Virus record (IMG/VR): IMGVR_UViG_3300046616_000188
DNA length: 64,000 nucleotides
Origin: a virus
Strand: one strand, 5' to 3'
Below the pieces are notes generated by a model. It was not told where the DNA came from. It ran no database searches and saw only the letters and a list, made by a program, of their open reading frames with translations. Each line of letters begins with the position of its first letter. The stretch's first letter is position 1. Shown one piece after another: positions 6,843 to 60,221 of the stretch. A program made the position numbers and the translations under genes.

Positions 6843-7148
6843 TTACTTTTCCCTTCCAATGTTTGGATGATCCGCGAGCCATTGTGTCCAATGCTCAGGC
6901 TTTTCACTGCTGCGATCCGTGACACGATGGCCCGCCGATTCGTAGGCCCGGTTATAGCCCTTGCTATAGAGCCACGGCTTGCGACGGTTGTAACACGCAT
7001 CGGCGCACATGTCGCACTGCTTGTGATACGCGGAGCGAGGATTGTTATTGGCATAGGCGCTGAGCCAAACCATCTGCTCCGTCTCTTCCACCAATTCATT
7101 GTCCGTCATGGCTTTCAGCTTCGTGGCGTATTCGTTAAAATCGGTCAT
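6843..7148 (-). CDS. Hypothetical protein
   Basis: AGGAGG RBS before MTDFNE. Confidence 0.65.
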   Translation of the reverse strand: MTDFNEYATKLKAMTDNELVEETEQMVWLSAYANNNPRSAYHKQCDMCADACYNRRKPWLYSKGYNRAYESAGHRVTDRSSEKPEHWTQWLADHPNIGREK

Positions 7149-7180
7149 ATCAACCCTCCTTAAAATCACTTGAGGACTTA

Positions 7181-7209
7181 TTCTTACATCCACACCATTT
7201 CGAAGTCAA
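7181..7209 (-). promoter_or_regulatory. Repeated early-type promoter
   Basis: TTGACT-N13-GATG-TAAGAA. Confidence 0.75.
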
Positions 7210-7517
7210 GCATCAAGTGTCACAAATTCTTTCCGAAACTCCGACACGTCCCACTTTTGAAGCGGCTTGAACCTAGAAATACGAAACGCCTGTTCCGATT
7301 CACCCATAACTCTGTATATAATAAGTGGGTTAGTGATTTCCATCAATTTTATACAAGCATGCCAGCCTAGCTCGCCGGTGTACCATTCAAGAATTTCTCT
7401 TACGGTATAGACAATCCCCCTGACGGGGAAGACCACTCCTCTATCCGCAGTCACCAAGGCTCTGCCGCTGTCCCAACCAGAATCATTTATAAGTTTAACG
7501 TGTTGACCTATTTGCAT
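7206..7517 (-). CDS. Phage protein, paralog of 4359-4667
   Basis: IGQHVKLI...FPVRGIVYTVREI...L.EI.NP...RFKPL. Confidence 0.7.
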   Translation of the reverse strand: MQIGQHVKLINDSGWDSGRALVTADRGVVFPVRGIVYTVREILEWYTGELGWHACIKLMEITNPLIIYRVMGESEQAFRISRFKPLQKWDVSEFRKEFVTLDA

Positions 7518-7533
7518 CAGTCATAACCTCCTG

Positions 7534-7722
7534 TCAAGGGATAATAATTTCATCCCTAAGCTCTTCATAGGCCTTTAACGCAGCTTTATAGAGTCGTTCA
7601 CGTTCAGGCCGTGCCGGTGCATCTGTGTCGCACCAAGCCAAGTCATACAAAGTATCATCTACCTCTGACGCGGCTTGATCCAGCCTCTTAATTTTTTCTA
7701 TCAACCCACCTAAAGTGATCAT
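7534..7722 (-). CDS. Hypothetical protein
   Basis: AAGGAG RBS. Confidence 0.6.
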   Translation of the reverse strand: MITLGGLIEKIKRLDQAASEVDDTLYDLAWCDTDAPARPERERLYKAALKAYEELRDEIIIP

Positions 7723-7895
7723 GTCAGTTCTCCTTAACAGGACGTGGAATAATACCCTTTTGGATCAATTTGTTCCACGCCATACGTTCATAGACATAGC
7801 CGATGACGAAGCCGATACTGAACGTGGCGATGAAGAAAATAGTGACAAAAAGAATTTCCACGTCACAACCCCCACTTTTCCATGACACCAATCAT

Positions 7896-8084
7896 TTAAA
7901 TCTCCAATTTCCCCATTGAACTTAAAGAGAAGGCCCACGCCGTAGGTCCCTCCCGCATCTCTTTAAACATTTCCGCCGCGATTCTGTCAATATTATCCGG
8001 TGTCAATGTTTCACCACAATGACAAATAAGGATGTGACGAATCGTAAATTCTTGTGTCGCGGCGCGGTTATTCTGATCAGCCAT
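7896..8084 (-). CDS. Hypothetical protein
   Basis: TAATG coupling. Confidence 0.6.
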   Translation of the reverse strand: MADQNNRAATQEFTIRHILICHCGETLTPDNIDRIAAEMFKEMREGPTAWAFSLSSMGKLEI

Positions 8085-8311
8085 TAATTATCCTCCTCGA
8101 TATTATTTTTATCAAACTTAGGATCGGGACGACGGCCCGGTGCGAATCGTGGATGTGTCACATAATCCGAAACCGGGCCGAAATAGTATTGAGGCACGGC
8201 GTTGTTATAATAGACACGGCTGAGCCAGAAACCCATATAGCGAGTCCCAAGCACCAAACCTTTCCGCCGAAGCCTTTTGCAACTTTTGCAATTGCAGAAC
8301 CTACCACTCAT
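8084..8311 (-). CDS. Basic Cys-rich hypothetical protein
   Basis: FCNCKSC motif; AGGAG RBS. Confidence 0.55.
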   Translation of the reverse strand: MSGRFCNCKSCKRLRRKGLVLGTRYMGFWLSRVYYNNAVPQYYFGPVSDYVTHPRFAPGRRPDPKFDKNNIEEDN

Positions 8312-8329
8312 CAGAAGTTCTCCTACAAA

Positions 8330-8821
8330 TCAATCATAATCGTCATAGTCATCGTCAATATCACTAAACATTTCTGTGAATCTGGCGTGCCACTCCCTAA
8401 CGCTCTGGATATAGCGCTCATCATTCTTCAACTCATCGCTGTAACGCATCGCGATCATCTTGTTAGTGAAAGCGTAATGGCACGCATCGGCTGAGCTTTC
8501 GATGTTATAACTCCCAAGAAGCTCACCCTCTGCATTTTTGCGCCCCGGTCCCGTTCCATCATATTCACTGATAGTATTCGTGACGCAATAAAACTCAGGA
8601 CCGGAACACAGCACGGCGTAGTCGCGGCGAAGAACTTTTGGCTCGCGCAACACGGATTTCGAAGTGATAAGGAAAGAGGAAAGATAACCACTCTGTGTCA
8701 CGGTCCAGATACGAACCGGTTCCATCTTAGCCTCTTCGATGAGATGGATAATTTCGGCCCGATACTTGATTGAACCGGCAGGTGCGGGAGCATCGCTACG
8801 GTCGGCGCGGTACTGAGTCAT
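8330..8821 (-). CDS. Hypothetical protein
   Basis: AAGGAG RBS, follows promoter. Confidence 0.7.
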   Translation of the reverse strand: MTQYRADRSDAPAPAGSIKYRAEIIHLIEEAKMEPVRIWTVTQSGYLSSFLITSKSVLREPKVLRRDYAVLCSGPEFYCVTNTISEYDGTGPGRKNAEGELLGSYNIESSADACHYAFTNKMIAMRYSDELKNDERYIQSVREWHARFTEMFSDIDDDYDDYD

Positions 8822-8857
8822 TTTAAATCTCCTTAATCAGTTGATCTTATGAGTATT

Positions 8858-8886
8858 TTATTACATCTAAAATTGTCACGTGTCAA
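8858..8886 (-). promoter_or_regulatory. Repeated early-type promoter
   Basis: TTGACA-N13-GATG-TAATAA. Confidence 0.75.
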
Positions 8887-9085
8887 TCACTTGTTTCAGA
8901 ATTTAAATCACGGCCCTGAACATAAGCCTCTATAGCTGCATCAACCGCTTTTCTAAGCGCTAAGGCAGAATACCTATAATCAGCTGGAACAGCTGCTTCA
9001 TAAGCTGCTACGGCGGTGTCATGCACCCTCTGGTTACTCTACCGGATCGTTAATTACTCTCTCACTCATTAATTTTCCTCCTAGG

Positions 9086-9271
9086 TCACGACTCAGAATT
9101 TAAATGATAAGCCCTATTGATCAACATCGAAAGCTGAAAAGCGCTTAGACCAAACATGTGAGCAATTTCAGCCTCAGTTCTACCGAGACGGAGCGCCGCT
9201 CTAAAACCTTTCATCCTCGCGTCAAGAAAGTCGGACCACCACGTCATTGATTCTGCTTCTTCACGAGTCAT
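9086..9271 (-). CDS. Small protein, possible HTH
   Basis: GRTEAEIAHMFGLSAFQLSMLI resembles sigma r4/HTH. Confidence 0.45.
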   Translation of the reverse strand: MTREEAESMTWWSDFLDARMKGFRAALRLGRTEAEIAHMFGLSAFQLSMLINRAYHLNSES

Positions 9272-9664
9272 TCTGACACCTCTGCCGTTACGTCTTGACC
9301 AATAACGATATCGCCATAACCGTAGATTGCGCTGGTATGAAGTGTGACCTTCTTCATCATAGGATATCTTTCAACCAGTGAAGCAAGGATCACCTCTTTG
9401 ATTTCCTGAGCCGTTAGTTCAATTTTTAAACGAGCCATTACTGCGCATCCCTCACTTCAACAACGGCGTGCTTGATTTGGACCGCAATCCCTTTGGTCCA
9501 ATCCACCGTAGCACTAGTGTTACACACTAAGCAAATGACATAAATGAAAATTCCGAATCCTAAAACATTTCTAATCATATAAAACTCCTTAAATTATCAC
9601 GAGCCAAAGGACGTAAAGAAAAATCCCTAGTGCTAAAACGCTTCCAAGCATAACAATCCCTTCT

Positions 9665-10141
9665 CTAATATTGATACCAGATCATACCATAATCAATGAC
9701 ATAATCAATCCAGAATTGCTCCATCAGCGGCAAAATCTTGGCCGTTTTCGTCTCGAATTCACTTAGAGCTAGGTCCTTAACCGTTAAAATTTCGGTAAAA
9801 GTGATTATGTCACAACGTTCACCTATTTTCAAGGCGTAATTTGAATGATAATTCGGGAGAAGCAGCTGCTCGGAGTGATGCTCAGGACTGAAAAGAGTAT
9901 CTTCAAGGTCGTAGTTTTTCGTCTCAGAGAGAATGTGCCACAAGATATGCTGAGCCGATTCGATATTTTTTGTCACAGTATCAGGAATTTCCGACACAGT
10001 GCCGCCGCATGTCTCACAATATTTCCCGAGTCGAGACGTATCGCAACGGGCGCAGATTCGCCTAACCCCCTTTTCTGTCACGGTGAGCGGGCCGGTGAGA
10101 CGGAGATAAGGACCGATATAGGTATAAGTGCTATGGCCCAT
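9665..10141 (-). CDS. Zn-ribbon-containing hypothetical protein
   Basis: CARC...YCETCG; GGAGG RBS before MGHST. Confidence 0.6.
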   Translation of the reverse strand: MGHSTYTYIGPYLRLTGPLTVTEKGVRRICARCDTSRLGKYCETCGGTVSEIPDTVTKNIESAQHILWHILSETKNYDLEDTLFSPEHHSEQLLLPNYHSNYALKIGERCDIITFTEILTVKDLALSEFETKTAKILPLMEQFWIDYVIDYGMIWYQY

Positions 10142-10142
10142 C

Positions 10143-10391
10143 TCAATACTCCTCCACTTCAATCTCAATCGCTGGCTGATGAGCATTGAATCTTGCCACC
10201 AACCTCCAATCATCTTCATCAACATTTTCGAATAGTGTGAAGTATGAATATGTTCCGAACAAGGCTCTAACAATTTCTAGAGCTTTAGTTCTGGCTTGGT
10301 CCACATCTGAAGCGTTACAGACAACGTCAAGAACCGGCTTAGTGATGTTGCCTTGGGCACGCAAAATGAATTCTTTCATACCTACTCTCAT
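10143..10391 (-). CDS. Hypothetical protein
   Basis: AGGAG RBS. Confidence 0.6.
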   Translation of the reverse strand: MRVGMKEFILRAQGNITKPVLDVVCNASDVDQARTKALEIVRALFGTYSYFTLFENVDEDDWRLVARFNAHQPAIEIEVEEY

Positions 10392-10392
10392 G

Positions 10393-10815
10393 TCAAATCT
10401 CCTTTGATTTAAGAACAACCCTGTATTGCTTCAACCAGCCATTATCGTTACGCATCTCATTGATTGTAACAATCCTATCTCCATATAGAGCGAAAAGGGT
10501 GTCACAGTCTTGATAGCTAGTATCGGTATAATCGAAATAGAGGATTTCACCGTCTACCGGCGTTTCCAAATTGTCGCTCAGTGTGCGTGCCACGTCACGA
10601 GCAATGGCGGCGATATGATCCACATCAAATGCATCATTATCTTTCCATGCCCGTAGAATCCGGTACACATCGGCAGGATTGACCACGGCATGTTTCATCT
10701 CGCCCCAGCGAGACAGATTGCGATTTGGTGCTACTGGTTCCATATCTTTACAGTCACAGAGTTTTATTGGTGAGTGTGAGAAATTACATCCCGGTTTGTG
10801 GTAGCTGTTCGCCAT
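10393..10815 (-). CDS. Hypothetical protein
   Basis: N-terminal HKPGC...CDC; RBS. Confidence 0.65.
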   Translation of the reverse strand: MANSYHKPGCNFSHSPIKLCDCKDMEPVAPNRNLSRWGEMKHAVVNPADVYRILRAWKDNDAFDVDHIAAIARDVARTLSDNLETPVDGEILYFDYTDTSYQDCDTLFALYGDRIVTINEMRNDNGWLKQYRVVLKSKEI

Positions 10816-10816
10816 T

Positions 10817-11077
10817 TCAATCCCTCCTTACCACTGCGCCGTCGATTTGGCGGAAATATGTATTTTGAACCGGAACCCAATCTTCAGGATTATTAAAGGG
10901 CCATGAAGAGTGTAGCGTAACTTCGCTAATCATCATGCGTCGGTCGTACATATCTGTAAATGTTGCAGAGATATACTTCTCAGCCGCCTCAAAATTATCG
11001 AAATAACCATGGGCACCGGGAAGCATGACGTAACCATACTGATCCACTTCACACACTGCGAAAATTCTCTGAGACAT
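10817..11077 (-). CDS. Hypothetical protein
   Basis: GGAGG RBS before MSQRIF. Confidence 0.65.
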   Translation of the reverse strand: MSQRIFAVCEVDQYGYVMLPGAHGYFDNFEAAEKYISATFTDMYDRRMMISEVTLHSSWPFNNPEDWVPVQNTYFRQIDGAVVRRD

Positions 11078-11111
11078 ATTAACCTCCTTCAAAACCTCTT
11101 TTGATGACTTA

Positions 11112-11140
11112 TTATTACATCAGCATTGTGCCAGTGTCAA
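11112..11140 (-). promoter_or_regulatory. Repeated early-type promoter
   Basis: TTGACA-N13-GATG-TAATAA. Confidence 0.75.
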
Positions 11141-11406
11141 TGCTTTAAATAATCTTGATACACCTCTGGAAAAACTGGCCAAGATTCTTCTAACGCATTG
11201 ATTTTACGAGTCAAATATTCAAGGATGATGCGTTTTTCAGAGTTGGCGACATGAGGTTTTCCAAATTCATTAAATTTAAACAGCCGCCTCAGTCGAATAT
11301 ATTCTCTAAAATTTGAATGCATTTCTTCTATTCCGACAGGCCCGAAATACTCCCGCACCGGTTCCGGTTCACGTTCGAAATTTTTAAATTTGGACCAATC
11401 AATCAT
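11137..11406 (-). CDS. Hypothetical protein
   Basis: Packed, overlapping start/stop. Confidence 0.6.
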   Translation of the reverse strand: MIDWSKFKNFEREPEPVREYFGPVGIEEMHSNFREYIRLRRLFKFNEFGKPHVANSEKRIILEYLTRKINALEESWPVFPEVYQDYLKH

Positions 11407-11632
11407 GCTCTACGTCCCTCGTATGTTTAAAATAAAACATGACCCATTTATGCCGGTCCCATGGATCACCGTCATAATCTCCCGTCACATATCCGCACCG
11501 GCTATGCCTGACATAGACTTGATCGGTGATAATATTGTAACCGGTAGGGGCGTATCCCATACCAGTATCAGCGATGTACAAAAACTTAAAATTCTTTTTG
11601 AATCTGTACCAGAACAGGATTCTTTCTATCAT
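11399..11632 (-). CDS. Hypothetical protein
   Basis: ATGA overlap. Confidence 0.6.
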   Translation of the reverse strand: MIERILFWYRFKKNFKFLYIADTGMGYAPTGYNIITDQVYVRHSRCGYVTGDYDGDPWDRHKWVMFYFKHTRDVEHD

Positions 11633-12030
11633 GTCAACCCAAGCCTCTTTCCCATTCTCTTTTTCCACGCCAGATAGACCTCGCGGCCCCTTTGAGTCAC
11701 TGTGATACGAGTCCTATTGATGGTAGGGTTTCCGCCATGAACATTATTATGACTCTGATACCTTGACAGTGTAACTTCACCATCTCTGATCATTTTCTTA
11801 ACAACGGTGTCGAGTCCGAAACCGCCTTCGCAGTTCAATGCAGCCTGCCCCGTTCCGCCACGCCTCGTGCCACGATACGAAGACCATGACGGGTAGTCGT
11901 CAAAGCCTTCGATCATGAACATTAGCATGTACATCCGCTTCGGCACGAGAGTTCTGATCCTGCTCCACCGGTTCAGAAATTCATCATATTGATTCGGCTT
12001 CGTTGTTATGACTTTTCTGAAATAGACCAT
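11629..12030 (-). CDS. Hypothetical protein
   Basis: Start trimmed to MVYFRK. Confidence 0.6.
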   Translation of the reverse strand: MVYFRKVITTKPNQYDEFLNRWSRIRTLVPKRMYMLMFMIEGFDDYPSWSSYRGTRRGGTGQAALNCEGGFGLDTVVKKMIRDGEVTLSRYQSHNNVHGGNPTINRTRITVTQRGREVYLAWKKRMGKRLGLT

Positions 12031-12031
12031 A

Positions 12032-12277
12032 TCAATCCCTTTCAAAAGCTTGGCGAAACTCATTCCTTACACTAATGAGTGTGTCTACCTCTTCCATCGT
12101 GAAGCGAACGATGAGAACTTTGTGAGAAGGAGTATCCTCATCATCAGACGGAACAGGTATCGTAACGCTGAAGTGCTGATTCCTAGGCAGTCCCGGCACG
12201 GCATAATCACCCATGCCAAAGCTAGGATCGCCAAGTGCCAACATCTTTTTCGAACCTGTCTTATGTATCACAGCCAT
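12032..12277 (-). CDS. Hypothetical protein
   Basis: AAGGAG RBS. Confidence 0.6.
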   Translation of the reverse strand: MAVIHKTGSKKMLALGDPSFGMGDYAVPGLPRNQHFSVTIPVPSDDEDTPSHKVLIVRFTMEEVDTLISVRNEFRQAFERD

Positions 12278-12291
12278 TTCGTTTCTCCTTT

Positions 12292-12909
12292 TTAACAGAA
12301 TTTATAAATTCCTTGATGCAGTTCCATTAACTCATCCAGCATATTTCGCCGCGCCTGTCGCTCCCATACCGGATGGTTCCAATAAATCTGAGGTGCATCG
12401 AGCATCCCTTTGAGGAACTTGGTCCGACCCTCAACGAATTGATCCAGTGACACAAAAGGTTTATATTCTTCCCAAATCTTCTTCCCATTATCTCGATAAT
12501 TTAAACCGGCAAGGCCGGATAAGTCATAGTCAAGGAAATTTTTGGCCCAATGGGGAAGGGCGTCGTTAGACATGGCACAATGATTCTTTGACGCCTTGAT
12601 AGCTTCAAATATATGTTCTTCGGCAGGACTGTGATAACCGTCACCGCCAACGCTCTGACTCCAATACACGTCAGCGCTTAGCTCTTCGTTATACCGACAA
12701 ACGGGGTAGTACACAATGTCGTGGAACAGGATCGCCGTCATAATCGGATCGGTGATCCCATAACCATGATGCATCGCTATAGCGATCAAGTCTTCGATAT
12801 GATCAATGTTGTGATACTTGCGATGCGGCTCGCTATAAAGATCGATGATCATATCGATGCAATGAGAGAAACCATTCTGTTCCGCGATTTTCTTGATTAG
12901 TTCTGACAT
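12292..12909 (-). CDS. HD-superfamily metal-dependent phosphohydrolase
   Basis: YSEPHRKYHNIDHI, LFHDIVY, NEELSA, LDYDLSGL motifs. Confidence 0.85.
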   Translation of the reverse strand: MSELIKKIAEQNGFSHCIDMIIDLYSEPHRKYHNIDHIEDLIAIAMHHGYGITDPIMTAILFHDIVYYPVCRYNEELSADVYWSQSVGGDGYHSPAEEHIFEAIKASKNHCAMSNDALPHWAKNFLDYDLSGLAGLNYRDNGKKIWEEYKPFVSLDQFVEGRTKFLKGMLDAPQIYWNHPVWERQARRNMLDELMELHQGIYKFC

Positions 12910-13107
12910 TCACTGACTCCTCAAATATTTGACCATAGCATCGATCAGTTCATTCTCTTCCGGCGTATTGCTGACATTCTTGCAATCTTGTTCCAATCGA
13001 TCAGCAACGATATAGACATTTTCGCTACTATACATACTCCCTAGGGCGAAGAACCGCGTGGCGCAGTCGTAGAGCACAGCGCTTTCGAACGTGATAGGAT
13101 AATTCAT
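12910..13107 (-). CDS. Hypothetical protein
   Basis: Follows promoter, RBS. Confidence 0.55.
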   Translation of the reverse strand: MNYPITFESAVLYDCATRFFALGSMYSSENVYIVADRLEQDCKNVSNTPEENELIDAMVKYLRSQ

Positions 13108-13147
13108 TTTGAAACCCTTCTCCCTCCTTATAATTTCTTTTTACTTT

Positions 13148-27632: not shown

Positions 27633-27846
27633 AACGTTGCGCCAGCTTCTTAATGATCCAGAACACGCCGGTAAATGGCCCAAGCATGGCACACATAAAA
27701 GCGGGCATTATATAAAACAAGATGATTGCTGGACCTTCGGCGTGATGTGACGGCTCACCAACAAGCCAGAAGAAAATACCCATACCACTGCCACACCAAA
27801 AGACTAGCACAAAACTTAGAAAAATTTGGTACAAAAAATCCATCAT
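27625..27846 (-). CDS. Small two-TM membrane protein
   Basis: ATGA overlap; two hydrophobic helices. Confidence 0.65.
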   Translation of the reverse strand: MMDFLYQIFLSFVLVFWCGSGMGIFFWLVGEPSHHAEGPAIILFYIMPAFMCAMLGPFTGVFWIIKKLAQRYG

Positions 27847-28589
27847 TTCAAATCCTCTCCATTTATGGGCTGGCACGACGCGCTCAGCAGATGTGGGTAG
27901 ATTTCCCAATTCCGCATCAAAAGCTTCAGCCTGAAACCGTATGACGTGGTTCGGCACTGGTTAAGGCCGGGAGGCACCGTAGCGCTTACGTAATCACTAT
28001 AGAACAGACCGTGGCCGTGCATCAAGCTCCACAAGTGATTGAAAGCAGTGCTCTCGACGCGGAAGTATATGCTATCCTCTTCGTCAAGCGGGAGACGTGT
28101 CGCGCCTTGGATCGAATGGACATTATTTTCAGAATCAATTTCCTGAGAATTGTGTAAATAAATAATTTCATCCACTTTAGCCGTGAGGGCGTAACTAGTC
28201 ACTTCACCGACGAACACCAACGAAGGCATTAGCAAGAACCAGAGAAAAACCACTGTGGCGGTTAGGAAAGCCCCGCCCCTCACTTTTGAGAAGCGAAGAT
28301 TCTCAAACTCATCACGTCGGTACACGACAAGGCTCCAAAGGCGTCTGTAACCGCCAAAGAGCTTCCAGAACGGCCATCGCACAACTTTCCATGTCGGAAT
28401 ACCAACATTGACAAAGCTCCACTGTGACGCTGCTATGACCTGAAGAATGAACCTGTGGAACATGGTAACATCTTCAGACATACGCGTGACGCGGGACTCG
28501 GATTTGACTTTGGCCCTGTCACGTTCGATTTTTTCTTGGACCTCGCGGGCCTGTTTAATTTTCTTTAAAAGATCATCTTCCATATCCAT
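27843..28589 (-). CDS. Single-pass membrane protein with DUF1523-like periplasmic domain
   Basis: TM about aa 105-130; C....YG.R....Y..L...C.P tail like ORF 60205; TAATG coupling to the Clp gene. Confidence 0.6.
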   Translation of the reverse strand: MDMEDDLLKKIKQAREVQEKIERDRAKVKSESRVTRMSEDVTMFHRFILQVIAASQWSFVNVGIPTWKVVRWPFWKLFGGYRRLWSLVVYRRDEFENLRFSKVRGGAFLTATVVFLWFLLMPSLVFVGEVTSYALTAKVDEIIYLHNSQEIDSENNVHSIQGATRLPLDEEDSIYFRVESTAFNHLWSLMHGHGLFYSDYVSATVPPGLNQCRTTSYGFRLKLLMRNWEIYPHLLSASCQPINGEDLK

Positions 28590-30580
28590 TACTCCACAAA
28601 AAACTGTTTCAGAGAAGGATTGTATTTAATCTGCACCGTCCCGGTAAATCCGTCTAGGACACGATCAGCTAGGATAGGCTCAAGGTTTGCAGTGATATAA
28701 CCGGGAAGGCCGCGAGCACCCGTTCTAGGATCATAGACCGCAGCGACGAAAGACTTTATTTCTTCCTGAGACATTGTGACATTTAGACCGTTATCGTGAT
28801 ACGCTTCATCTAGCGTGATCATTTCACGAGTCACGATTTTCTCAATTGAGTCAAGGCCTAGGCTCTTGAAGAACACGATGTTTTCACGACCTGCGAAACG
28901 ATTAAGAAATTCTGGACGATACGTAGCTATCAAATCTTCCATCGCGAGAGCTTCAGCCTCTTCGAAGGAAATATCGTTACGAAGGAAATGAGGCTGGCCA
29001 ATATTCGAAGTGAATATTAGAATCGTATCGTTGAAGGAAACTTCACGACCAACGTTATCAGTCAATCGGCTATCGCTTAGGATCGATAGGAAAATATCGT
29101 AGATGGATTCATGGGCCTTTTCGATTTCATCGAACAGGATAACCCTATTCCGATTCTTCAGCATCATATTTGTAAGAATACCACCAGCCTCATACCCTTC
29201 ATAGCCGGGAGGCGCACCACACAGCAAAGCCGTGGCGTGCTTTTCCTTATATTGGGCCATATCGAACCGTGTCAAAGCCTTGTCGCTGCCTAGAAGCTCC
29301 CAAGCCAGACCTTTAGCGATTTCAGTTTTACCTACACCGCTCGGCCCTAGGAACATCATAGCAGCCTGTGGCTGATCCTTCTTTCTCTTAATGACGCGAG
29401 CCGTCTTAACCGCGTTTGCCAAACGCTTCGTAGCATTAGGCTGCCCAAATACTCGACCGTTCAATGCGTCTTCCAAGTTTCTAAGCTTTTCACGCTCGTC
29501 TTGGTTAAGTGTATCGAGTGAAATGCCGCTAATTTTAGAAAATTCAGCTTCAACCAGTTCTTTGGTCAATACCAATCCGGCATTAACCACAGCGGTCGTT
29601 TCGTTAAAAGCCTTGCGATTTTCAGCTACAAGTTCTTTATACTTTTGAATCTTTGATTTGTTTTCAATAACGGTTTGCGGCTCCATAAGTTTGAAGTCGC
29701 TGTTTTCCTTACGCTTTGCCTGTTCTTCCAGAATAACTTCGTTTTGTTCTTCCAGTTCAGCAATGGCAATTTCACCGTCTCTCTGGTTACGGTAAAAATC
29801 CCTAAGCTTGACCGAAACTTCTTCTGGAATTTCTCTGTGCGCCGCGAGACGATAAGACGCAAGGGCACGATCAAGAAGCGTAGCGCTGCGCTCAGGCTGA
29901 GCACGGCTAAGACCCGGATCGTTGACTCGGTATTTATTTGTCAGTTCGATGGCCTTGGCCACCGCGTCATCATCGATCTTAATTCCATGATGAAGCGACA
30001 GGCCTAAAGCACCTTGGGAGACAATGTTTGACAAAACATCGTGTTCCGGCTCAAGGACATGCAGCAACGTGAAGTGTTCTCGTACATCGCTATGCATTTT
30101 CAGCACAAGATCAAGGTCATCGTCACGTGTTTCAAAAATGACTTGGTTCAATCCATTCTTGACCGTTGCCATAAGATCGTTGATGAAATGAGTGCTGCCG
30201 CTGTTGCGGCACGCCTCGATAAAGTCGCGAGTGTCTTCGATCATCAGAACCGAGTCTGGCGTAGCTTCGAGTCGATCAGTGATCTTTTTGAAATTTTTAT
30301 TAAGTTCAGATGTATCACCGTTAGAGAACAGACCATCAACATCGAGCCAAAACAGCTTCTTCGCTACGATATCGAACGGCGCGTCAACTTTCGCCTTGAG
30401 CGCCTGTAGTCCGTGAAGGATGGATGTGACACCAACACCACCGGCCCCTACCAGAATAACGGAATTTGCCTCTTTGCGCATGAGAATCGAGCTTAACCGC
30501 TCAAGATAATCATCGCGACCCACAAGCTTGAAATTGGGATTTGCACTGAGATAGACCGAACCGCGAATCAGATGATCCAA
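28589..30580 (-). CDS. ClpB-like Hsp100 AAA+ ATPase, no N-domain, degenerate first ATPase
   Basis: D2: GPSGVGKT, GYEGY, ILFDEIEKAH, RPEFLNR, GAR; D1: GAGGVGVT and MIED; coiled-coil middle. Confidence 0.85.
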   Translation of the reverse strand: MDHLIRGSVYLSANPNFKLVGRDDYLERLSSILMRKEANSVILVGAGGVGVTSILHGLQALKAKVDAPFDIVAKKLFWLDVDGLFSNGDTSELNKNFKKITDRLEATPDSVLMIEDTRDFIEACRNSGSTHFINDLMATVKNGLNQVIFETRDDDLDLVLKMHSDVREHFTLLHVLEPEHDVLSNIVSQGALGLSLHHGIKIDDDAVAKAIELTNKYRVNDPGLSRAQPERSATLLDRALASYRLAAHREIPEEVSVKLRDFYRNQRDGEIAIAELEEQNEVILEEQAKRKENSDFKLMEPQTVIENKSKIQKYKELVAENRKAFNETTAVVNAGLVLTKELVEAEFSKISGISLDTLNQDEREKLRNLEDALNGRVFGQPNATKRLANAVKTARVIKRKKDQPQAAMMFLGPSGVGKTEIAKGLAWELLGSDKALTRFDMAQYKEKHATALLCGAPPGYEGYEAGGILTNMMLKNRNRVILFDEIEKAHESIYDIFLSILSDSRLTDNVGREVSFNDTILIFTSNIGQPHFLRNDISFEEAEALAMEDLIATYRPEFLNRFAGRENIVFFKSLGLDSIEKIVTREMITLDEAYHDNGLNVTMSQEEIKSFVAAVYDPRTGARGLPGYITANLEPILADRVLDGFTGTVQIKYNPSLKQFFVE

Positions 30581-30603
30581 AACTTTTCTCCTTTGATATG
30601 AAT

Positions 30604-30640
30604 AAGGCGCTATTTAAAGCGCCTTAAGTTACTTTGTCAA
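30604..30640 (-). promoter_or_regulatory. Promoter overlapped by 8-bp hairpin between coiled-coil and Clp genes
   Basis: TTGACA 30640-30635; AAGGCGCT/AGCGCCTT inverted repeat. Confidence 0.5.
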
Positions 30641-30651
30641 GCGTTTTAAGA

Positions 30652-32319
30652 TTAAATCTTGAACGGGTTGTTACCACTCGGCGTCACTACAGGCGTCCCG
30701 GCTTGTTCAGCAGCAGAATTTGCTTCTGAGTAAATCGCGCCTTGAGTTTTAAGATCATCTTGGAGCGAGGTAGCAATTTCCTTGAGTTGATCAAGACCGG
30801 CACGCATTTCAGCGACACTTTCACGTGTCACGTCAGTTGCGGCGCGAGTGACTTCCCCATAAGCTGCAAGGTCTTCCATGGCCTTCTGAATGTCGCTATT
30901 GATTTGCGTAGTTCCGAAAGCCACTCTCATAGACTCCTTCATCGCGATTTCATTCGTTTTATCATTCATCGATAGAATGGTTTCGCGAGCGATTTCACTA
31001 GATTCTCCGATAGCTGCGGCACCTACGGCCTGAAGCATGACGCTTAGACGATCCGCCGTACCAGCCACACCAGCCGTTGCCAGCTTCTGAACCTTATCCA
31101 TTTGGTTCTTATTGCTGTCCTTCATCGTTTTGATACGTGAAGACTGGCTGCTAAGATCGGCGTAAGTCAGTTCGGTATCAGCCGCGCTAGCAGCTAGCAT
31201 TGAGGTATGCTCATCAATGGTGCGAATCACATCGTCACGCTGCATCTTAGCGATCATGGATTCACCTTCGATGGACTTGACAACATCGTTACGCTTAGCG
31301 ACAATTTCGCCTTCAGCTTCTTTCATACCTTCACCAAGAATTGCATAAGCCGTGATCATGGTGTGATTAGCGTCAGTGAGATTGTCGATCTGACCGTTCA
31401 GGCCAGTGAGATGGCCCTTGATATCGTTAATACTGGTCTTAGAGGTTTTAACAAATTCAAGAGCTTTATCGACCGTCTTCTTCTGATTTTCCTTGTGCTG
31501 ATCCGAAGCAAGATCAAGCATCTTTCGGATCGTCTTCTTAGCCTCAACGTATTCCGCCGCACCCTCTTCAGCAGCGGCAGAAGTTGAAGTAAGGGTTTCA
31601 AGTTTTACCTGAAGATCGCTAAGCTCAGCCTTGGCCTTCTCAATTTCCATGTTGTTCACATTGATTTGCTGTTGCGCCTCTTTCTTGATCCCGCCAAAAC
31701 CAAATAGAGACTTTTCTTCCGCGAGGTTGGCATTGTCGTAGTTCAAATTGTCGATGCGAAGCTGTGCCGTCTTGAACGCGGATTCAATTTCTGCTCTCTG
31801 TGCATTCAAAGCCTCTTCGTTGCGCCGGTCGTTGCGAATATCGGAGAAGACATCAGCTGTCTTACCCTCTTTGCGTACCGTATTCATAGCGTCAACGATG
31901 TCTAGAATAGGCTGAAGCGCCTCGTTGAATTCCAGCATCCCGTTGTTCATGCTGGTATAAACTTGCTGGAGCCGAGCCATCGTGTCAGTATCGGTCAAAG
32001 CAATGATTTTGCTCGCCATGTTCTCACGCTGAAGCTGAAGATATTCCTTAATATTTTCAAGCTCTTGGACCCTGATACGGTTCTCTTCCTTGGTACTGAT
32101 AGCTGCCAGTTTCTGAGCAACTTCCTTCTGCTTCTGATCCGGTGTCAAATTTGGATCAAAAATAATTTTGTAAAAAGTGTTTGACGAAATATTGGCGTCA
32201 CGCTTTTCTTCAACTTCTGCCTTCTGAGCCGTGGTGGCCTTAGCCTTGGTGCCAATGATTTCAGACAGTCGGCTCGACGTGGCCTGCTTCAGCTTTGCGC
32301 CATTTTCATAATCACTCAT
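30652..32319 (-). CDS. 555-aa coiled-coil protein
   Basis: Long A/E/K/Q-rich heptads, no TM, one SLFGFGG loop. Confidence 0.75.
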   Translation of the reverse strand: MSDYENGAKLKQATSSRLSEIIGTKAKATTAQKAEVEEKRDANISSNTFYKIIFDPNLTPDQKQKEVAQKLAAISTKEENRIRVQELENIKEYLQLQRENMASKIIALTDTDTMARLQQVYTSMNNGMLEFNEALQPILDIVDAMNTVRKEGKTADVFSDIRNDRRNEEALNAQRAEIESAFKTAQLRIDNLNYDNANLAEEKSLFGFGGIKKEAQQQINVNNMEIEKAKAELSDLQVKLETLTSTSAAAEEGAAEYVEAKKTIRKMLDLASDQHKENQKKTVDKALEFVKTSKTSINDIKGHLTGLNGQIDNLTDANHTMITAYAILGEGMKEAEGEIVAKRNDVVKSIEGESMIAKMQRDDVIRTIDEHTSMLAASAADTELTYADLSSQSSRIKTMKDSNKNQMDKVQKLATAGVAGTADRLSVMLQAVGAAAIGESSEIARETILSMNDKTNEIAMKESMRVAFGTTQINSDIQKAMEDLAAYGEVTRAATDVTRESVAEMRAGLDQLKEIATSLQDDLKTQGAIYSEANSAAEQAGTPVVTPSGNNPFKI

Positions 32320-32632
32320 AAATTTTCTCCTTTTCAGTTACTACATTTCTAGCGGCTCGAACGAGCCGATTCCAATGATCGACTCCTACCGCAATTTGAT
32401 CCTCTTGTGAAGAGCTTTTCACCTTATCGAAAAATTTAACTGCTTTGGCTAATTCATCGATATCGACTTCTATCTTTTTTGCCTCGACGTACTGGAACCA
32501 AAGCTCATTAAGCAACTCACTAATATCATTGAAGTTACATTTTTCGTTGCATTGAAACACTCTTTGTTCCAAGTCCCATTCTTCAACGGACTCCCATTTG
32601 ACAGGGACGCGTTTAGTGTGTATACTTGCCAC
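32312..32632 (-). CDS. Hypothetical protein
   Basis: AAGGAG RBS. Confidence 0.6.
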   Translation of the reverse strand: MASIHTKRVPVKWESVEEWDLEQRVFQCNEKCNFNDISELLNELWFQYVEAKKIEVDIDELAKAVKFFDKVKSSSQEDQIAVGVDHWNRLVRAARNVVTEKEKIYE

Positions 32633-42524: not shown

Positions 42525-42777
42525 GCCTGTGGTACGGGGTAAAGCCTCGGTCTGTAATTGGGATTTGAGGGTCAGGTTCCGCACCAAGGAACAAGTCAAG
42601 AAAGCGATCCACTACCTCCTTGAAATGGATATAGATATTGACTTTTCCCTCACATTTGAGCTAGGTGACAGCGACACGGCTAATACTTACATAATTGATA
42701 TAGACAGCATGTCGTGGGCCAATAATCTAATTGATGTTGCCAAAATCTTTAAAAAAGTTGATTACCAATACGATTGA
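42511..42777 (+). CDS. Hypothetical protein
   Basis: AGGAG RBS. Confidence 0.6.
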   Translation: MPSYKPVVRGKASVCNWDLRVRFRTKEQVKKAIHYLLEMDIDIDFSLTFELGDSDTANTYIIDIDSMSWANNLIDVAKIFKKVDYQYD

Positions 42778-43805
42778 GAGAGGTTTACGTGGCAAAAACG
42801 ACTGGACTTATTGTAATTTCTGGACTTCTACCGACACGTGGCCATCAGTATCTCATTGATTTCGCATCTAATTTTGCTGATCAACTTCACGTCATTGTCT
42901 GCATCAGGTCATTTGAACCTGCCCTAACCCTTGACAGGGCAGAAGTCTTGGCACGGCATTACGCCAGAACCAATGTCACGGTGCATGAGCATTACGCCGA
43001 TGACGCGCCACAGAACGATGACGGCACGCCAGAATTTTGGGCCTATTGGTCGAATCTTGTAGACCGTGCCATCACTAAGCGGACCAAGATCGACTATCTG
43101 TTTGCCTCTGAGCATTACGGCGCTAGGTTTGCCGAAGCGCTTGGCGTCACGTTTATTCCAGTCGATATCGGCAGGGAAATTCTTAGTGTCACAGGGACAA
43201 GTGTGAGACGAAATCTGGCTGAGAATTTTAAATATATTCTGCCAGAATATCAGACTAAACTGTCCAAAACTATCTGCATGTTCGGCCAAGAGAGTGTGGG
43301 TAAAACCACTATGGCGAAATGGCTCGCCGCTAAGCTGGAAGGCCGTTGGATTCATGAATGGGCTAGGCCGTATCTCGAAGAAATCGGCGCTGAAGTCACT
43401 GACGAAAAAATGTTAAACATTGTTCGTGGCCAATTCGCAGCCATGGTTTCTGCTCCTAAATCCCTGTTTAATATAAGAGATACCGATCTCTTGTCCACAA
43501 TCGGTTACTACAAAATTTATGGCGGTAAGGTTCCTAAAGAACTTTATGAAAATTTTAACTTGACAAAGAGCGATCTTTATGTCATGTTAAATGACAATAT
43601 CCCATTCGAAGCTGATCCTTTGAGATATGGCGGCGATAAGAGGGAAAGTACGATGCAGTTCTGGATCGATCTACTCGATGAGTATGACTGCAAATATCAT
43701 GTCGTAGAAAATACAGACATTTTGAAACAGCGAAAAGAAGTTGTCGAAGCTGTTTATGATTTTTTCACCGATCTTCGTGAAATAGAAGAATTCGTTCGAG
43801 ATTAA
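42774..43805 (+). CDS. nadR: NadR-like NMN adenylyltransferase / ribosylnicotinamide kinase
   Basis: PTRGH (HxGH-like), FASEHYG, GQESVGKTT, EWARPY, DTDLLST, PFEADPLR. Confidence 0.85.
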   Translation: MREVYVAKTTGLIVISGLLPTRGHQYLIDFASNFADQLHVIVCIRSFEPALTLDRAEVLARHYARTNVTVHEHYADDAPQNDDGTPEFWAYWSNLVDRAITKRTKIDYLFASEHYGARFAEALGVTFIPVDIGREILSVTGTSVRRNLAENFKYILPEYQTKLSKTICMFGQESVGKTTMAKWLAAKLEGRWIHEWARPYLEEIGAEVTDEKMLNIVRGQFAAMVSAPKSLFNIRDTDLLSTIGYYKIYGGKVPKELYENFNLTKSDLYVMLNDNIPFEADPLRYGGDKRESTMQFWIDLLDEYDCKYHVVENTDILKQRKEVVEAVYDFFTDLREIEEFVRD

Positions 43806-52891: not shown

Positions 52892-52928
52892 ACACGTGTA
52901 AATGAAAGGGCAAGCGAAGGAGTTTCTA

Positions 52929-53993
52929 ATGCCGGATATTAAGTATGACTACGGCTGTTTTATTGGCCGATTTGCCCCTGTCCACGATGGCCATGTCAAA
53001 GTGATGATGGAGGCGTTAGAACAATGCGATTATCTTATCGTTGTTGTTGGTTCCGACAATTTGGCTCGGAACACTCGAACCCCCTTTACAGCCCCTGAAC
53101 GTCAGCAAATGATTCGTTTAGCCACGAATTATGATGATAGGATTCTGCTAACTAGTGTTGGTGATTATCCTTATAATGACAGTCTATGGCTCGCGGATGT
53201 TCAGGGCGCAGTTTATTCCACAATCACTGGTCATGAAGCTAACGCGAAATATACTGACAAGGGTTGGAAAGATTACAATCATTCCATTGCTCTTGCCGGA
53301 ATGTCGAAAGATGAGTCAAGTTTCTATTTGAAGCTTTTCCCGCAATTCGCATCTATCGCTGTCAGCCCCGCCGACTATGCCGGTGAAGTTCTGAGCGCAA
53401 CGGCGATTCGTGAGTTCCTGTTTAACGGAGATATTGCGAGTGCTGCTCATTTAAATCCTAGAGTCCAAGCCTTTATTCAAGGCAACATGACCGCAAATAT
53501 AACTGTTTGGGACGGACTACGTTCTGATTGGGCATATGAAAAGGGTTATGAGGCTCAATGGGGTCGTGGACCACATACCACGGTTGATTCTTGCGTAATT
53601 CAGGCTGGCCACGTGCTTCTGATCAAACGCGGAAACGAATACGGTAGAGATTTGTGGGCCATGCCGGGAGGTTTCGTGAATCGTGAAAGACTCGTTCACG
53701 CCGCAGTTAGAGAGTTGCGCGAAGAGACTAGGCTGAAAGTTCCTGAAAAGGTCCTGTTTGGCTCAGTGACAGCGACTAAGGTTTATGATAACCCTTACCG
53801 CAGCAACCGCAGCCACATCATTTCTCATTGCTTCAAATTTGAGTTAGAGAACGTTAAAGCTGGTTTGCCAGAAGTTAAAGGCTCTGACGACGCGAAGCAT
53901 GCGGAGTGGATTCCTATTTCAAAGATTAGCTCAATGAAAGGGCAATTCTTCGAAGATCATGAGCAAATTTTGCTTGATATAATACACGCATAA
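52929..53993 (+). CDS. nadM: Bifunctional NMN adenylyltransferase / Nudix hydrolase (NadM-Nudix)
   Basis: GRFAPVHDGH; PF...ER; SATAIRE; Nudix GGF......AA.RELREET. Confidence 0.92.
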   Translation: MPDIKYDYGCFIGRFAPVHDGHVKVMMEALEQCDYLIVVVGSDNLARNTRTPFTAPERQQMIRLATNYDDRILLTSVGDYPYNDSLWLADVQGAVYSTITGHEANAKYTDKGWKDYNHSIALAGMSKDESSFYLKLFPQFASIAVSPADYAGEVLSATAIREFLFNGDIASAAHLNPRVQAFIQGNMTANITVWDGLRSDWAYEKGYEAQWGRGPHTTVDSCVIQAGHVLLIKRGNEYGRDLWAMPGGFVNRERLVHAAVRELREETRLKVPEKVLFGSVTATKVYDNPYRSNRSHIISHCFKFELENVKAGLPEVKGSDDAKHAEWIPISKISSMKGQFFEDHEQILLDIIHA

Positions 53994-54011: not shown

Positions 54012-55433
54012 ATGCTACTTAGAAATATTATTACTTCCAGTGACGCTTACAAGTTCAGCCATCCCTTTGTTGTTCGAAATGACATTGATCGGGCCACGTC
54101 TTATATCGAGGCGAGAAAGACGGCTTACACCGACGAAATCGTTTTCTTTGGCCTACAGGCTTACATCAAGGAATATCTGGCGAAGCAGCTAACTATGGCT
54201 GACATTGACACGGCGGAACGTTATGCCAAGTCGGCTATGATTCCATTCGCTAGGGCTGTGTGGGAGCGTGTTGTCAATGAGTTTGACGGCTACGTTCCTG
54301 TGGCTATTGAAGCTCTTGCTGAAGGCACTGTGGTTCGTCCCGGCGTTGTCGTGGTCCAAGTCACTTCCTATAAGATGCCAGAAATTGTGGCAGATATTGA
54401 GACTTCTCTTTTACGTGGCATTTGGTATCCGTCTACCGTTGCAACACTTAGCCGTGCGATCAAGAAGAATATTGCTAATGCGTATAACGTAACGTCTGAT
54501 CTTGACATTACAGCGCCGATGACTTTGGCCTGTGCTCTCAATGATTTCGGCGCACGTGGTTGCAGCAGTGGTGAAACCGCTGCGCTAGGTGGTTTGGCCC
54601 ACGCAGTTAATTTCCTTGGTTCTGACACGATTGAAGCCATTGAAGCTGCGGTCACATATTACAATCACGATCTTGACACTGATGGTCCTGTCGTTATTTC
54701 TGTCCCAGCCACGGAACACAGCGTAACCACTATGAATGGTGAAGATGGCGAGTGCGACTTTGTCGGCAAAGTAATTGACACATTCACTGAGATGGGCTTC
54801 CCCATTGTCTCCATCGTCGCAGATAGTTATGATCTTGACCGTTTCGTCACTGAATATGTCGGTACGACGCATAAGGAAAAGATTGAGGCTCGCGACGGCT
54901 GGATCGTGGTTCGCCCCGATAGCGGTACGCCGCATTTTATTGTTCCTCATGTTCTGAAGCTTCTCGACGCCAAGTTTGGCAGCACGATAAATTCTAAGGG
55001 TTTTAAAGTTTTAAATCCAAAAGTTCGTGTTATTCAAGGCGATGGTGTAAACCTAGAGTCGATAAACAACATCCTTTCAGCCGTCAAGTGGTCTGGCTTC
55101 TCAGTCGAGAACGTCGTGTTCGGCATGGGAGGACAACTTTTACAGGCACCCATGAGAGATGATTTTAGTTGGGCCATGAAGACTAACGAAATCGTTGTTG
55201 ACGGTGAATATATCGATGTTCAGAAGAAGCCTAAGACTGACCTGAAGAAGTCGAGCAAGGGTGGCAGGCAAGCCGTGGTTTATAATGGCGAACACTTTGC
55301 CTCTGTCAAACTTCGTGACCTACTCAGCGCGAGCCACGGCACAAAGAACTATCTTGAATGGGTTTGGGACACAGGTAAATTCCTTAAACCAGAGATAACG
55401 TTCAAGGAAATTCGAGCCAACGCTTCGATCTAA
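54012..55433 (+). CDS. nadV: Nicotinamide phosphoribosyltransferase (NAMPT/NadV)
   Basis: DAYKFSH, FFGLQ, DFGARG, PATEHS, SIVADSYD, RPDSG, IQGDG, FGMGG.LLQ. Confidence 0.93.
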   Translation: MLLRNIITSSDAYKFSHPFVVRNDIDRATSYIEARKTAYTDEIVFFGLQAYIKEYLAKQLTMADIDTAERYAKSAMIPFARAVWERVVNEFDGYVPVAIEALAEGTVVRPGVVVVQVTSYKMPEIVADIETSLLRGIWYPSTVATLSRAIKKNIANAYNVTSDLDITAPMTLACALNDFGARGCSSGETAALGGLAHAVNFLGSDTIEAIEAAVTYYNHDLDTDGPVVISVPATEHSVTTMNGEDGECDFVGKVIDTFTEMGFPIVSIVADSYDLDRFVTEYVGTTHKEKIEARDGWIVVRPDSGTPHFIVPHVLKLLDAKFGSTINSKGFKVLNPKVRVIQGDGVNLESINNILSAVKWSGFSVENVVFGMGGQLLQAPMRDDFSWAMKTNEIVVDGEYIDVQKKPKTDLKKSSKGGRQAVVYNGEHFASVKLRDLLSASHGTKNYLEWVWDTGKFLKPEITFKEIRANASI

Positions 55434-58943: not shown

Positions 58944-59250
58944 TACTTGGGGATCGTTCTGGATTCCCGAAGAAATTTTCAGACGTTATTGTGAATTAAA
59001 AAATTTGGAATTTGAAGTAAAGCAAGGCCCTTGCGGCAGGGAATTATACATAAACGGCGAATGGCAGGATGAGGATGATGACCCGATTGAGCGAAGCGAT
59101 TGGGCCTATGTCCAAGCCGTGGAAGAATTTCCCGATTATGGTCTAGCTGTGACTGATGAAATCCCAAGTGGTACTAGATACAGAATTGAACATTACGACG
59201 GTAAAGAAACCGTTATCACTTTAGACGAAATTAATTGGAGAATTGCATAA
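58921..59250 (+). CDS. Conserved phage protein
   Basis: KIV....G.F...R.D...VQAVEE...EIP....Y.I..YDG.E. Confidence 0.7.
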   Translation: MPKIVYHDTWGSFWIPEEIFRRYCELKNLEFEVKQGPCGRELYINGEWQDEDDDPIERSDWAYVQAVEEFPDYGLAVTDEIPSGTRYRIEHYDGKETVITLDEINWRIA

Positions 59251-60221
59251 TGGAAAATATCGGTTTTATTCTAACCGGCAATGGTGTCACACTATTTTTT
59301 GATGGAAAGTCGGTCCCGGTAGACAAGACTCATCTCTATTTCAATGAGATTGTCGAAGAATTGAAGAAGGGTTACGACAACTTTGACGTGGCTCGGATCA
59401 AGGAGCTTTCAAACATTCCTGAAGCTATTAAGGGCAAGCTGTATGGCGATGTCACTGTTGCTGATGGTCTGATTTATTATAAGAATAAGCTGGTCCACAA
59501 CACCCTGACGAACAAGATGATCGAAGTGATGAAGGAAGGTTGGGACATTGCTATCTGGGCCAACTTCCTGAATAACGTGATGAAAAACCCTTCACAAACT
59601 GCGATTGACGAACTATATCTGTTCCTTGAAGCGTCACAGATGCCGATCACGCCAGATGGTTATTTTCTAGCATTCAAGAAGGTAAAAAATGACTATACCA
59701 GTATTTACGACGGCAAGACAGATAACAGTATTGGCTCAAAGCCTTCTATGCCTCGTGAGAAAGTGGACCCCAATCGCAATTCTACTTGCAGCCGTGGTCT
59801 TCATTTCTGTGCTCATAGTTACCTGACCCATTTCGGACATTCTTCAGATTCCCGCGTCGTGATTGTTAAAATCAATCCAGCCGATGTTGTCGCGATCCCC
59901 TCTGATTACTCTAATGCTAAAGGCAGGGCTTGGACCTACGAAGTCGTTGGCGAAATTGCTAATCCCGGCGATGGCGAGCGTGAAAAGCGTTTCGATAAGG
60001 TCGTGGATGATAGCTGGGACGCTCCTGAAGTCGAAGAAAACGTCGTAGAAGAACAAGGTGAACTTCTCTTCGGTGACATTTACACCGCGAAGGAAATTCT
60101 TGACAAAGTGAATGAAGTAGGTTCTATCAGAGCCGCTGGACGCGCCCTTGGCATTGCTAAATCGACGTTCGGTGATTGGGTCAAGAAGGCAAAGGAGTTG
60201 GTTGATGAAGATGAAGACTAA
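59250..60221 (+). CDS. rIIB: rIIB-like protein with C-terminal HTH
   Basis: PITPDG.FLAFKKV, MPR..VD.N...CSRGLH, INPADVV.IP.DY. Confidence 0.9.
   Translation: MENIGFILTGNGVTLFFDGKSVPVDKTHLYFNEIVEELKKGYDNFDVARIKELSNIPEAIKGKLYGDVTVADGLIYYKNKLVHNTLTNKMIEVMKEGWDIAIWANFLNNVMKNPSQTAIDELYLFLEASQMPITPDGYFLAFKKVKNDYTSIYDGKTDNSIGSKPSMPREKVDPNRNSTCSRGLHFCAHSYLTHFGHSSDSRVVIVKINPADVVAIPSDYSNAKGRAWTYEVVGEIANPGDGEREKRFDKVVDDSWDAPEVEENVVEEQGELLFGDIYTAKEILDKVNEVGSIRAAGRALGIAKSTFGDWVKKAKELVDEDED

Follow-up and report, generated by a model that had tools for sequence, protein, structure and literature searches.

Specialised Hsp100 motors that serve a single client are rare, and each of them is informative. The textbook case is ClpV, which uses an N-domain to recognise its client and whose two rings are both active. 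In the Plasmodium translocon of exported proteins (PTEX), the ClpB-like Hsp101, in which both rings are likewise active, acts with EXP2, a membrane protein with a single, amphipathic helix. In Pex1/Pex6, a double-ring AAA+ motor, the first ring (D1) is inactive, the second (D2) is active, and the complex is held at the membrane by the single-pass proteins Pex15/Pex26. Genes for PspA/Snf7 proteins have been found linked to genes for Vps4 or for tandem classical AAA+ proteins with an inactive N-terminal copy, sometimes together with a membrane-anchored third protein, a linkage interpreted as a sign of ATP-driven remodelling of membranes (Ravi et al. 2024, PMC11237479). Here, a set of three genes (the triad) encoding a helical protein, an Hsp100 ATPase and a bitopic membrane protein was examined in a 64000 nucleotide (nt) stretch of viral DNA (IMG/VR record IMGVR_UViG_3300046616_000188), referred to below as the window, the source of which is a jumbo phage from the rhizosphere and a relative of Agrobacterium phage Atu_ph07. 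The triad was found to be conserved across phages and bacteria, and on balance, by a modest preference, it appears to be a module not described before, centred on a specialised Hsp100 unfoldase, which would act as a dedicated, D2-powered remodelling machine at the membrane. No published description of the triad was found in full-text literature searches.

The triad and its distribution

The triad consists of three open reading frames (ORFs) arranged head to tail on the minus strand, which is also the strand of the motifs and segments given below for these three genes. The first gene (coordinates 30652–32319) encodes P0001, a 555 amino acid (aa) all-helical protein that family searches placed in no known family. 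The second (28589–30580) encodes P0002, identified by Pfam and by alignment as a 663-aa Hsp100/ClpB-like double-ring AAA+ protein, and the third (27843–28589) encodes P0003, a 248-aa protein that is bitopic as judged from its hydropathy profile and structural model. The stop codon of the ATPase gene overlaps the start codon of the membrane protein gene (gagTAATGgat), and a second ATG lies two codons downstream. The ATPase gene begins with TTG, with an AGGAG ribosome-binding site upstream, and this start matches the N-termini of the bacterial homologues in the alignment. An initial annotation of the window, made from the sequence alone, had given the same coordinates and minus-strand layout, and its TAATG coupling and its preceding coiled-coil protein of 555 aa, all-helical in the AlphaFold2 model, also held on re-examination.

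That annotation had proposed a three-part, membrane-associated system and had named a lack of co-conservation and interaction as grounds for rejecting it. A lack of co-conservation was clearly not borne out, as the triad is found together in phages and in many bacterial chromosomes with unrelated flanking sequences. In Atu_ph07, the helical protein is gp493, the ATPase gp492 and the membrane protein gp488. Across species-representative genomes and viral contigs, 89 loci were recovered, from the Alpha- and Gammaproteobacteria, the Bdellovibrionota and the Desulfovibrionaceae (Desulfovibrio). The ATPase gene was directly downstream of the helical protein gene in all of these loci with enough flanking sequence, and the third gene, detected with a profile of the third protein, was downstream of the ATPase gene in approximately 68, being missing only in the Gilliamella clade and in incomplete contigs. 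The same three genes in the same order were present in two unrelated chromosomal contexts. The chromosomal neighbours of the triad are housekeeping genes that vary by lineage, and neither defence islands nor type VI secretion genes were seen near it in the loci inspected.

A natural variant with two genes is seen in the Gilliamella clade, where Gilliamella itself and one related genome of the Orbaceae carry the genes for the helical protein and the ATPase with no third gene downstream (L052, L054–L059, L062, L067, L071 and L077–L079), and in Orbus (L060) the third protein is shortened to 188 aa. A divergent variant in an ankyrin-repeat-rich genome (L190; coordinates 7001–13125) encodes a 612-aa helical protein and a 906-aa ATPase, with ORFs of 69 aa and 328 aa, the latter with a weak LPD7 match, where the third gene usually stands.

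An inactive first ring and an intact second ring

Motifs in P0002 were assigned by alignment to T. thermophilus ClpB (1qvr). In the D1 Walker A motif, GEPGVGKT in 1qvr corresponds to GAGGVGVT in P0002 (aa 45–52; coordinates 30425–30448), where Val replaces the Lys, and in the Walker B motif LFIDELH corresponds to LMIEDTR (LMIEDT, aa 112–117; 30230–30247). The D1 pore loop, AGAKYRGEFEE in 1qvr, is SNGD-TSELNK in P0002 and has no Tyr, and at the Arg fingers LERRFQ is replaced by VREHFT, so that the ERR pair becomes REH. D2 is canonical. It retains the Walker A motif GPSGVGKT (aa 412–419; 29324–29347), the GYEGY pore loop GAPPGYEGY (aa 455–463; 29192–29218), the Walker B motif ILFDEIEK (aa 481–488; 29117–29140), sensor 1, RPEFLNR and GARGL.

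The Walker A Lys of D1 was absent from all 84 family ATPases, whereas that of D2 was present in 84 of 84. The D1 position is occupied by C in 38 members, V in 30, A in 5, I in 4, L in 3, T in 2, and R and S in one each. As every member lacks this Lys, the dead D1 is neither a chance feature nor the decay of one phage copy. D1 is otherwise well conserved across the family, which argues that it has retained a structural role.

Pfam identified AAA_2 (2.3e-43), ClpB_D2-small (3.5e-10) and AAA_lid_9 in P0002 but not Clp_N. Residue 19 pairs with residue 172 of 1qvr, at the start of D1, which is where the P0002 sequence begins. From sensor 1 to the Arg finger of D2, P0002 can be aligned with ClpB and has no insertion of the ClpA type, so there is no IGF/IGL loop for docking to ClpP. 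The middle domain is present as a helical insertion but is short, and in the alignment it is ~50 aa shorter in the phage ATPases than in their bacterial homologues. The description of P0002 in the initial annotation, namely a D1 with GAGGVGVT, an inverted Walker B (IED) and no pore Tyr, an intact D2, no N-domain and no IGF loop, was thus correct throughout.

Relationship of the ATPase to ClpA, ClpB and ClpV

P0002 scored well below the cut-offs of the NCBIfam equivalogs for ClpB (TIGR03346; 338.7 bits, cut-off 1232.1), ClpA (338 bits, cut-off 993) and ClpV (295.4 bits, cut-off 884.95). In a tree with ClpA, ClpB and ClpV as the outgroup, the triad ATPases were monophyletic with 100% support, on a long branch apart from all three. 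Genomes that bear the triad also encode canonical ClpB and ClpA, and some encode ClpV.

The ATPase could be an ordinary ClpB-type disaggregase that eases aggregation in the infected cell, with neighbours that are unrelated to its function. Its best sequence matches among known structures are ClpB and ClpC, and gp492 of Atu_ph07 was annotated as ClpB and discussed in terms of a general chaperone role (PMC6102473). However, P0002 reaches roughly one quarter of the ClpB cut-off score and has no N-domain, D1 is inactive on four counts throughout the family, and the gene keeps a strict linkage to the same two partner genes across phyla. In addition, canonical ClpB is already present in triad-bearing genomes, and the triad ATPases form a separate clade. 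A disaggregase of this kind is therefore considered highly improbable.

Membership of the known Clp families was rejected in each case. For ordinary ClpB, the grounds were the sub-cut-off score, the missing Clp_N and the incompetent D1; a competent D2 with ClpB_D2-small is shared. ClpV/TssH was rejected on the sub-cut-off score, the separate clade and the lack of type VI secretion genes in the inspected loci, and a ClpA/ClpC/ClpX-type partner of ClpP is ruled out by the missing docking loop in D2.

The helical protein

No family was found for P0001 in Pfam, PHROGs, NCBIfam or PADLOC. Among 1.8 billion cluster representatives (50% identity), 362 relatives were found at E≤1e-3 and 211 at E≤1e-30, and of the full-length proteins among the 150 listed, nearly all have 525–615 aa. 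Bacterial chromosomal homologues are numerous, at ~40% identity. Neither a signal peptide nor a membrane segment was predicted.

The AlphaFold2 model of P0001 (predicted local distance difference test, pLDDT, 71) is all-helical with very long helices, and is disordered at the N-terminus (residues 1–39) and in a tail ending in PFKI. An FGFGG loop (aa 206–210; coordinates 31690–31704) forms the tip of a helical hairpin (H154–200/H213–248). F206 and G207 are near-invariant, and the motif F[GAS]xGG was found in 116 of the 246 full-length members. The most conserved stretch, GVAGTADRLS (aa 417–426; 31042–31071), opens a helix rich in small residues that is too weakly hydrophobic for a membrane segment (Kyte-Doolittle maximum 1.07). 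A422, D423 and L425 are among the invariant positions, and GVAGxADRLS was found in 139/246 members. The C-terminal PFKI motif (30655–30666) follows a low-confidence, low-complexity linker. F553 is invariant in the family alignment and PF occurs within the last 12 residues in 162/246 members, making the PFKI end a candidate docking or threading tag.

Searches with the profile of the family against PDB sequences gave chance-level matches only, and Foldseek with the P0001 model returned nothing at E≤1e-3. With VIA-align, the top matches (Z 12) were designed or generic helical bundles, within helical noise. Of the ESCRT-III fold, in which a long alpha1-alpha2 hairpin is joined by three more helices, the matches covered the hairpin only; those to CHMP4B (Z 9.1, root-mean-square deviation (rmsd) 1.9, 78 residues aligned) and Shrub (Z 10.1, rmsd 11.2) were also within this noise.

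Two family assignments were examined, of which TelA was rejected at the sequence level and PspA was not supported. A protein-atlas lead pointed to TelA (0.88), but TelA (PF05816) gave no Pfam match in 49 members of the helical family and hhalign against 23 TelA sequences gave a probability of 1.6%. In two triad-bearing genomes the TelA model finds true TelA genes elsewhere, not the triad gene. For PspA/ESCRT-III (PF04012), hhalign against 27 PspA sequences gave 17% over 56 columns, and neither PspA_IM30 nor Snf7 was among the 25 listed of the 32 Pfam families matched at E≤0.05 by the 49 members.

The fold lists for P0001 also include AhlC, ClyA and Cry6Aa, and PADLOC matched P0002 to the ClpB-like ATPases DolB (Dodola) and PDC-M37B. 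Together with the patchy distribution of the triad and its presence in phages, these matches could point to a conflict system acting in defence, abortive infection or counter-defence, in which the helical protein would damage membranes as an effector of the alpha-pore-former kind, checked or armed by the ATPase. However, the pore-former matches (Z 9–10) are within helical noise, and the inspected chromosomal contexts are all of the housekeeping kind. The PADLOC matches are confined to the D2 AAA domain (residues 276–534). As these are generic AAA_2 matches and both partner proteins had no PADLOC match, Dodola and PDC-M37 were rejected as candidates, and a conflict system is judged very unlikely.

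The membrane protein

P0003 likewise had no family in Pfam, PHROGs, NCBIfam or PADLOC. In its model, which is confident (pLDDT 93), two long helices at the N-terminus are followed by one membrane helix, and a beta domain forms the C-terminal part. The membrane segment (aa 105–128; coordinates 28206–28277) is preceded by a strongly basic stretch (aa 66–104). The Kyte-Doolittle maximum over 19 residues is 2.27 (residues 109–127), and a second segment is marginal at 1.27 (residues 47–65), in agreement with the single-pass protein described in the initial annotation. The beta domain (aa 131–244; 27858–28199) is OB-fold-like in the model, with a best match to SSB-type OB folds at Z 7.4 (rmsd 3.5, 90 residues aligned). 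C212 and C239 in this domain are near-invariant, and a second Cys pair, present in most bacterial members, has been lost in the phage clade of the window (GC...LPC to GA...LPL). From the basic stretch before the membrane helix, by the positive-inside rule, and the conserved Cys pairs after it, the N-terminus is predicted to be inside and the beta domain in the periplasm.

The DUF1523-like label given to P0003 in the initial annotation was not established. Pfam DUF1523 (PF07509) matched none of 35 gene-3 family members at E≤1, and hhalign gave a probability of 22% over only 32 columns, in a YGxR..YP stretch. A protein-atlas lead also pointed to DUF1523 (0.82), and one triad-bearing genome carries a true DUF1523 gene elsewhere. 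Small viral proteins that combine a membrane helix with a beta domain matched the model weakly (E 4e-4 to 5e-3). A link to DUF1523 is possible but unproven. Weak Pfam matches to EI24/CysZ were seen in four bacterial gene-3 members (best E 8.5e-6).

The coupling of the ATPase and membrane protein genes suggests matched stoichiometry, and the third protein combines long cytoplasmic helices with a single membrane helix. These features, with the disordered tail of the helical protein and its conserved terminal motif, would suit an Hsp100 translocon or inserter, in which the exit face of the motor sits on an oligomer of the bitopic protein and the helical protein is threaded tail-first into or across the inner membrane. 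The precedent is Plasmodium Hsp101, which acts in this manner on the EXP2 pore in PTEX. However, the membrane helix of P0003 is uniformly hydrophobic, whereas a protein-conducting pore would be expected to have an amphipathic one. The helical protein has no signal peptide or membrane segment, and the Gilliamella clade lacks the third gene. A translocon is therefore regarded as unlikely.

The conserved Cys pairs of the periplasmic domain and the housekeeping gene neighbours would also be consistent with a Psp-type device for stress sensing or regulation. In such a device the membrane protein would use its periplasmic OB domain to monitor the state of the envelope. The helical protein would serve the ATPase as an adaptor or regulator and not as a client, and the true clients would be other proteins. 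The combination of a helical protein, an AAA+ protein and a small membrane sensor resembles the logic of PspA/PspF/PspBC (PMC11237479). Against this, the triad ATPase is an Hsp100-class unfoldase and not a transcription activator, and the helical family reached only the low hhalign value against PspA given above. A Psp-type device is accordingly thought doubtful, with a small chance of being correct.

Origin of the phage copy

In the ATPase tree, the phage copies are nested among bacterial ones. P0002 grouped with the ATPases of two viral contigs (99% support) within a clade supported at 95% that also included Dongia, Taklimakanibacter and Reyranella. The phage module was most likely captured from alphaproteobacteria, though the exact placement of the phage clade is unsure because of the long branches.

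Proposed role of the module

In the favoured reading, a dedicated remodelling machine at the membrane, D2 alone would hydrolyse ATP and thread the substrate. As D1 is strongly conserved yet unable to hydrolyse ATP, it is probably a structural or docking ring, and as there is no ClpP-docking loop, the motor would remodel proteins instead of supplying a protease. Its dedicated client or partner is most likely the helical protein encoded alongside it, which would plausibly be engaged at its disordered basic tail with the terminal PF-x-hydrophobic motif. The bitopic protein, with its cytoplasmic helices, membrane helix and periplasmic OB-like domain, may anchor the machine at the inner membrane or couple it to this membrane. 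The phage lineage, which includes the window phage, Atu_ph07 and related contigs, would then use the module at the host inner membrane during infection.

Several points weigh against this interpretation. The purpose of the module in the phage is pure inference, and physical binding of the helical protein to the ATPase is itself inferred. For the helical protein, no family can be recognised, and the fold matches amount to helical-bundle noise. Among longer proteins, no fused forms of the third protein were found, which counts weakly. In Atu_ph07, three small hypothetical genes (gp489–gp491; L001:6204–7656), counterparts of which are absent from the window, lie between the ATPase and membrane protein genes. 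Membrane tethering can also be dispensed with, as the third gene is missing from the Gilliamella clade.

The proposal of a three-part membrane-associated system made in the initial annotation therefore stands in part. The genes are co-conserved and membrane association fits the predicted topology of the third protein, but the fold searches with P0001 were unspecific, and the filament or channel that the helical protein was thought to form, and the ATPase to recycle, stays conjectural. A bolder version, which is speculative and has a small chance of being right, is that the triad is the counterpart, in bacteria and phages, of a membrane-remodelling machine of the ESCRT-III/Vps4 type or of an Hsp100 translocon of the PTEX type. 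The helical protein would assemble on, or thread into or across, the inner membrane, with the D2-only motor docked on the bitopic OB-domain protein, and jumbo phages would have captured the system to reshape or repair the membrane of the infected host.

The family is large (at least 211 cluster representatives of the helical partner, at 50% identity and E≤1e-30), and neither of the two partner proteins has a known family. D1 has been dead yet conserved from a time before the family came to span several bacterial phyla and jumbo phages. The module offers a clean, natural setting in which to study the purpose of a D1 ring that does not hydrolyse ATP, and an ATP-driven process at the inner membrane that has gone undescribed may come to light. 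Cultured organisms suited to its study are Atu_ph07 with Agrobacterium, Mameliella alba, Pokkaliibacter, Motilimonas and, for the two-gene variant, Gilliamella.

Source phage and genetic context in the window

Atu_ph07 (490 kb) is the closest cultured relative of the window phage as judged by the triad genes. Phage records contained no DNA near-identical to the window, which was detected only in rhizosphere metagenomes, and no RNA dataset was listed as containing it. Phage markers encoded in the window are RIIA, RIIB, a primase, a DNA ligase and enzymes of NAD salvage. The RIIA-like gene is at 56820–58943 and the RIIB-like gene at 59235–60221, the latter matching only the C-terminal part of the RIIB profile. 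The NAD+ salvage genes encode a nicotinamide-nucleotide adenylyltransferase (42774–43805), a cytidyltransferase/NUDIX fusion (52902–53993) and a nicotinamide phosphoribosyltransferase (54012–55433).

A perfect palindromic hairpin of 9 bp (30603–30626; no strand assigned) lies in the 71-nt spacer between the helical protein and ATPase genes, and the coding strand has only a weak T-run after it. The hairpin may function in attenuation or RNA stability, and might set the ratio of client to motor. On the other side of the helical protein gene, a 106-aa ORF (32312–32632) shares 8 nt with its start, and in Atu_ph07 gp494 likewise overlaps gp493.

Comparison with known systems

Like the triad ATPase, ClpB/Hsp104 is a two-ring Hsp100 with an AAA_2 D2, ClpB_D2-small, a coiled-coil insertion in the small domain of D1 and no ClpP loop. 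However, the triad ATPase has no N-domain, its D1 is dead family-wide, its middle domain is shortened in the phage copies, and it falls far under the equivalog cut-off into a clade of its own that is tied to obligate partner genes. ClpV (TssH) is a specialised Hsp100 paralogue that dismantles one co-encoded helical assembly, the TssBC sheath, and this was the model behind the initial annotation. Here, in contrast, there is no N-domain, and no type VI secretion genes lie nearby in the loci inspected. PTEX differs from the triad in that the triad membrane helix is uniformly hydrophobic and the triad D1 is dead. Pex1/Pex6 belongs to a different AAA+ clade and is eukaryotic, and its likeness to the triad is one of architecture.

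The ATPase linked to PspA/Snf7 belongs to the classical AAA clade whereas that of the triad is an Hsp100, and the triad helical protein is ~555 aa long with no significant similarity to PspA. By analogy of arrangement, however, the PspA/Snf7-AAA+ linkage is the closest published parallel to the triad, as in both a helical protein stands beside a two-domain AAA+ protein with an inactive first domain.

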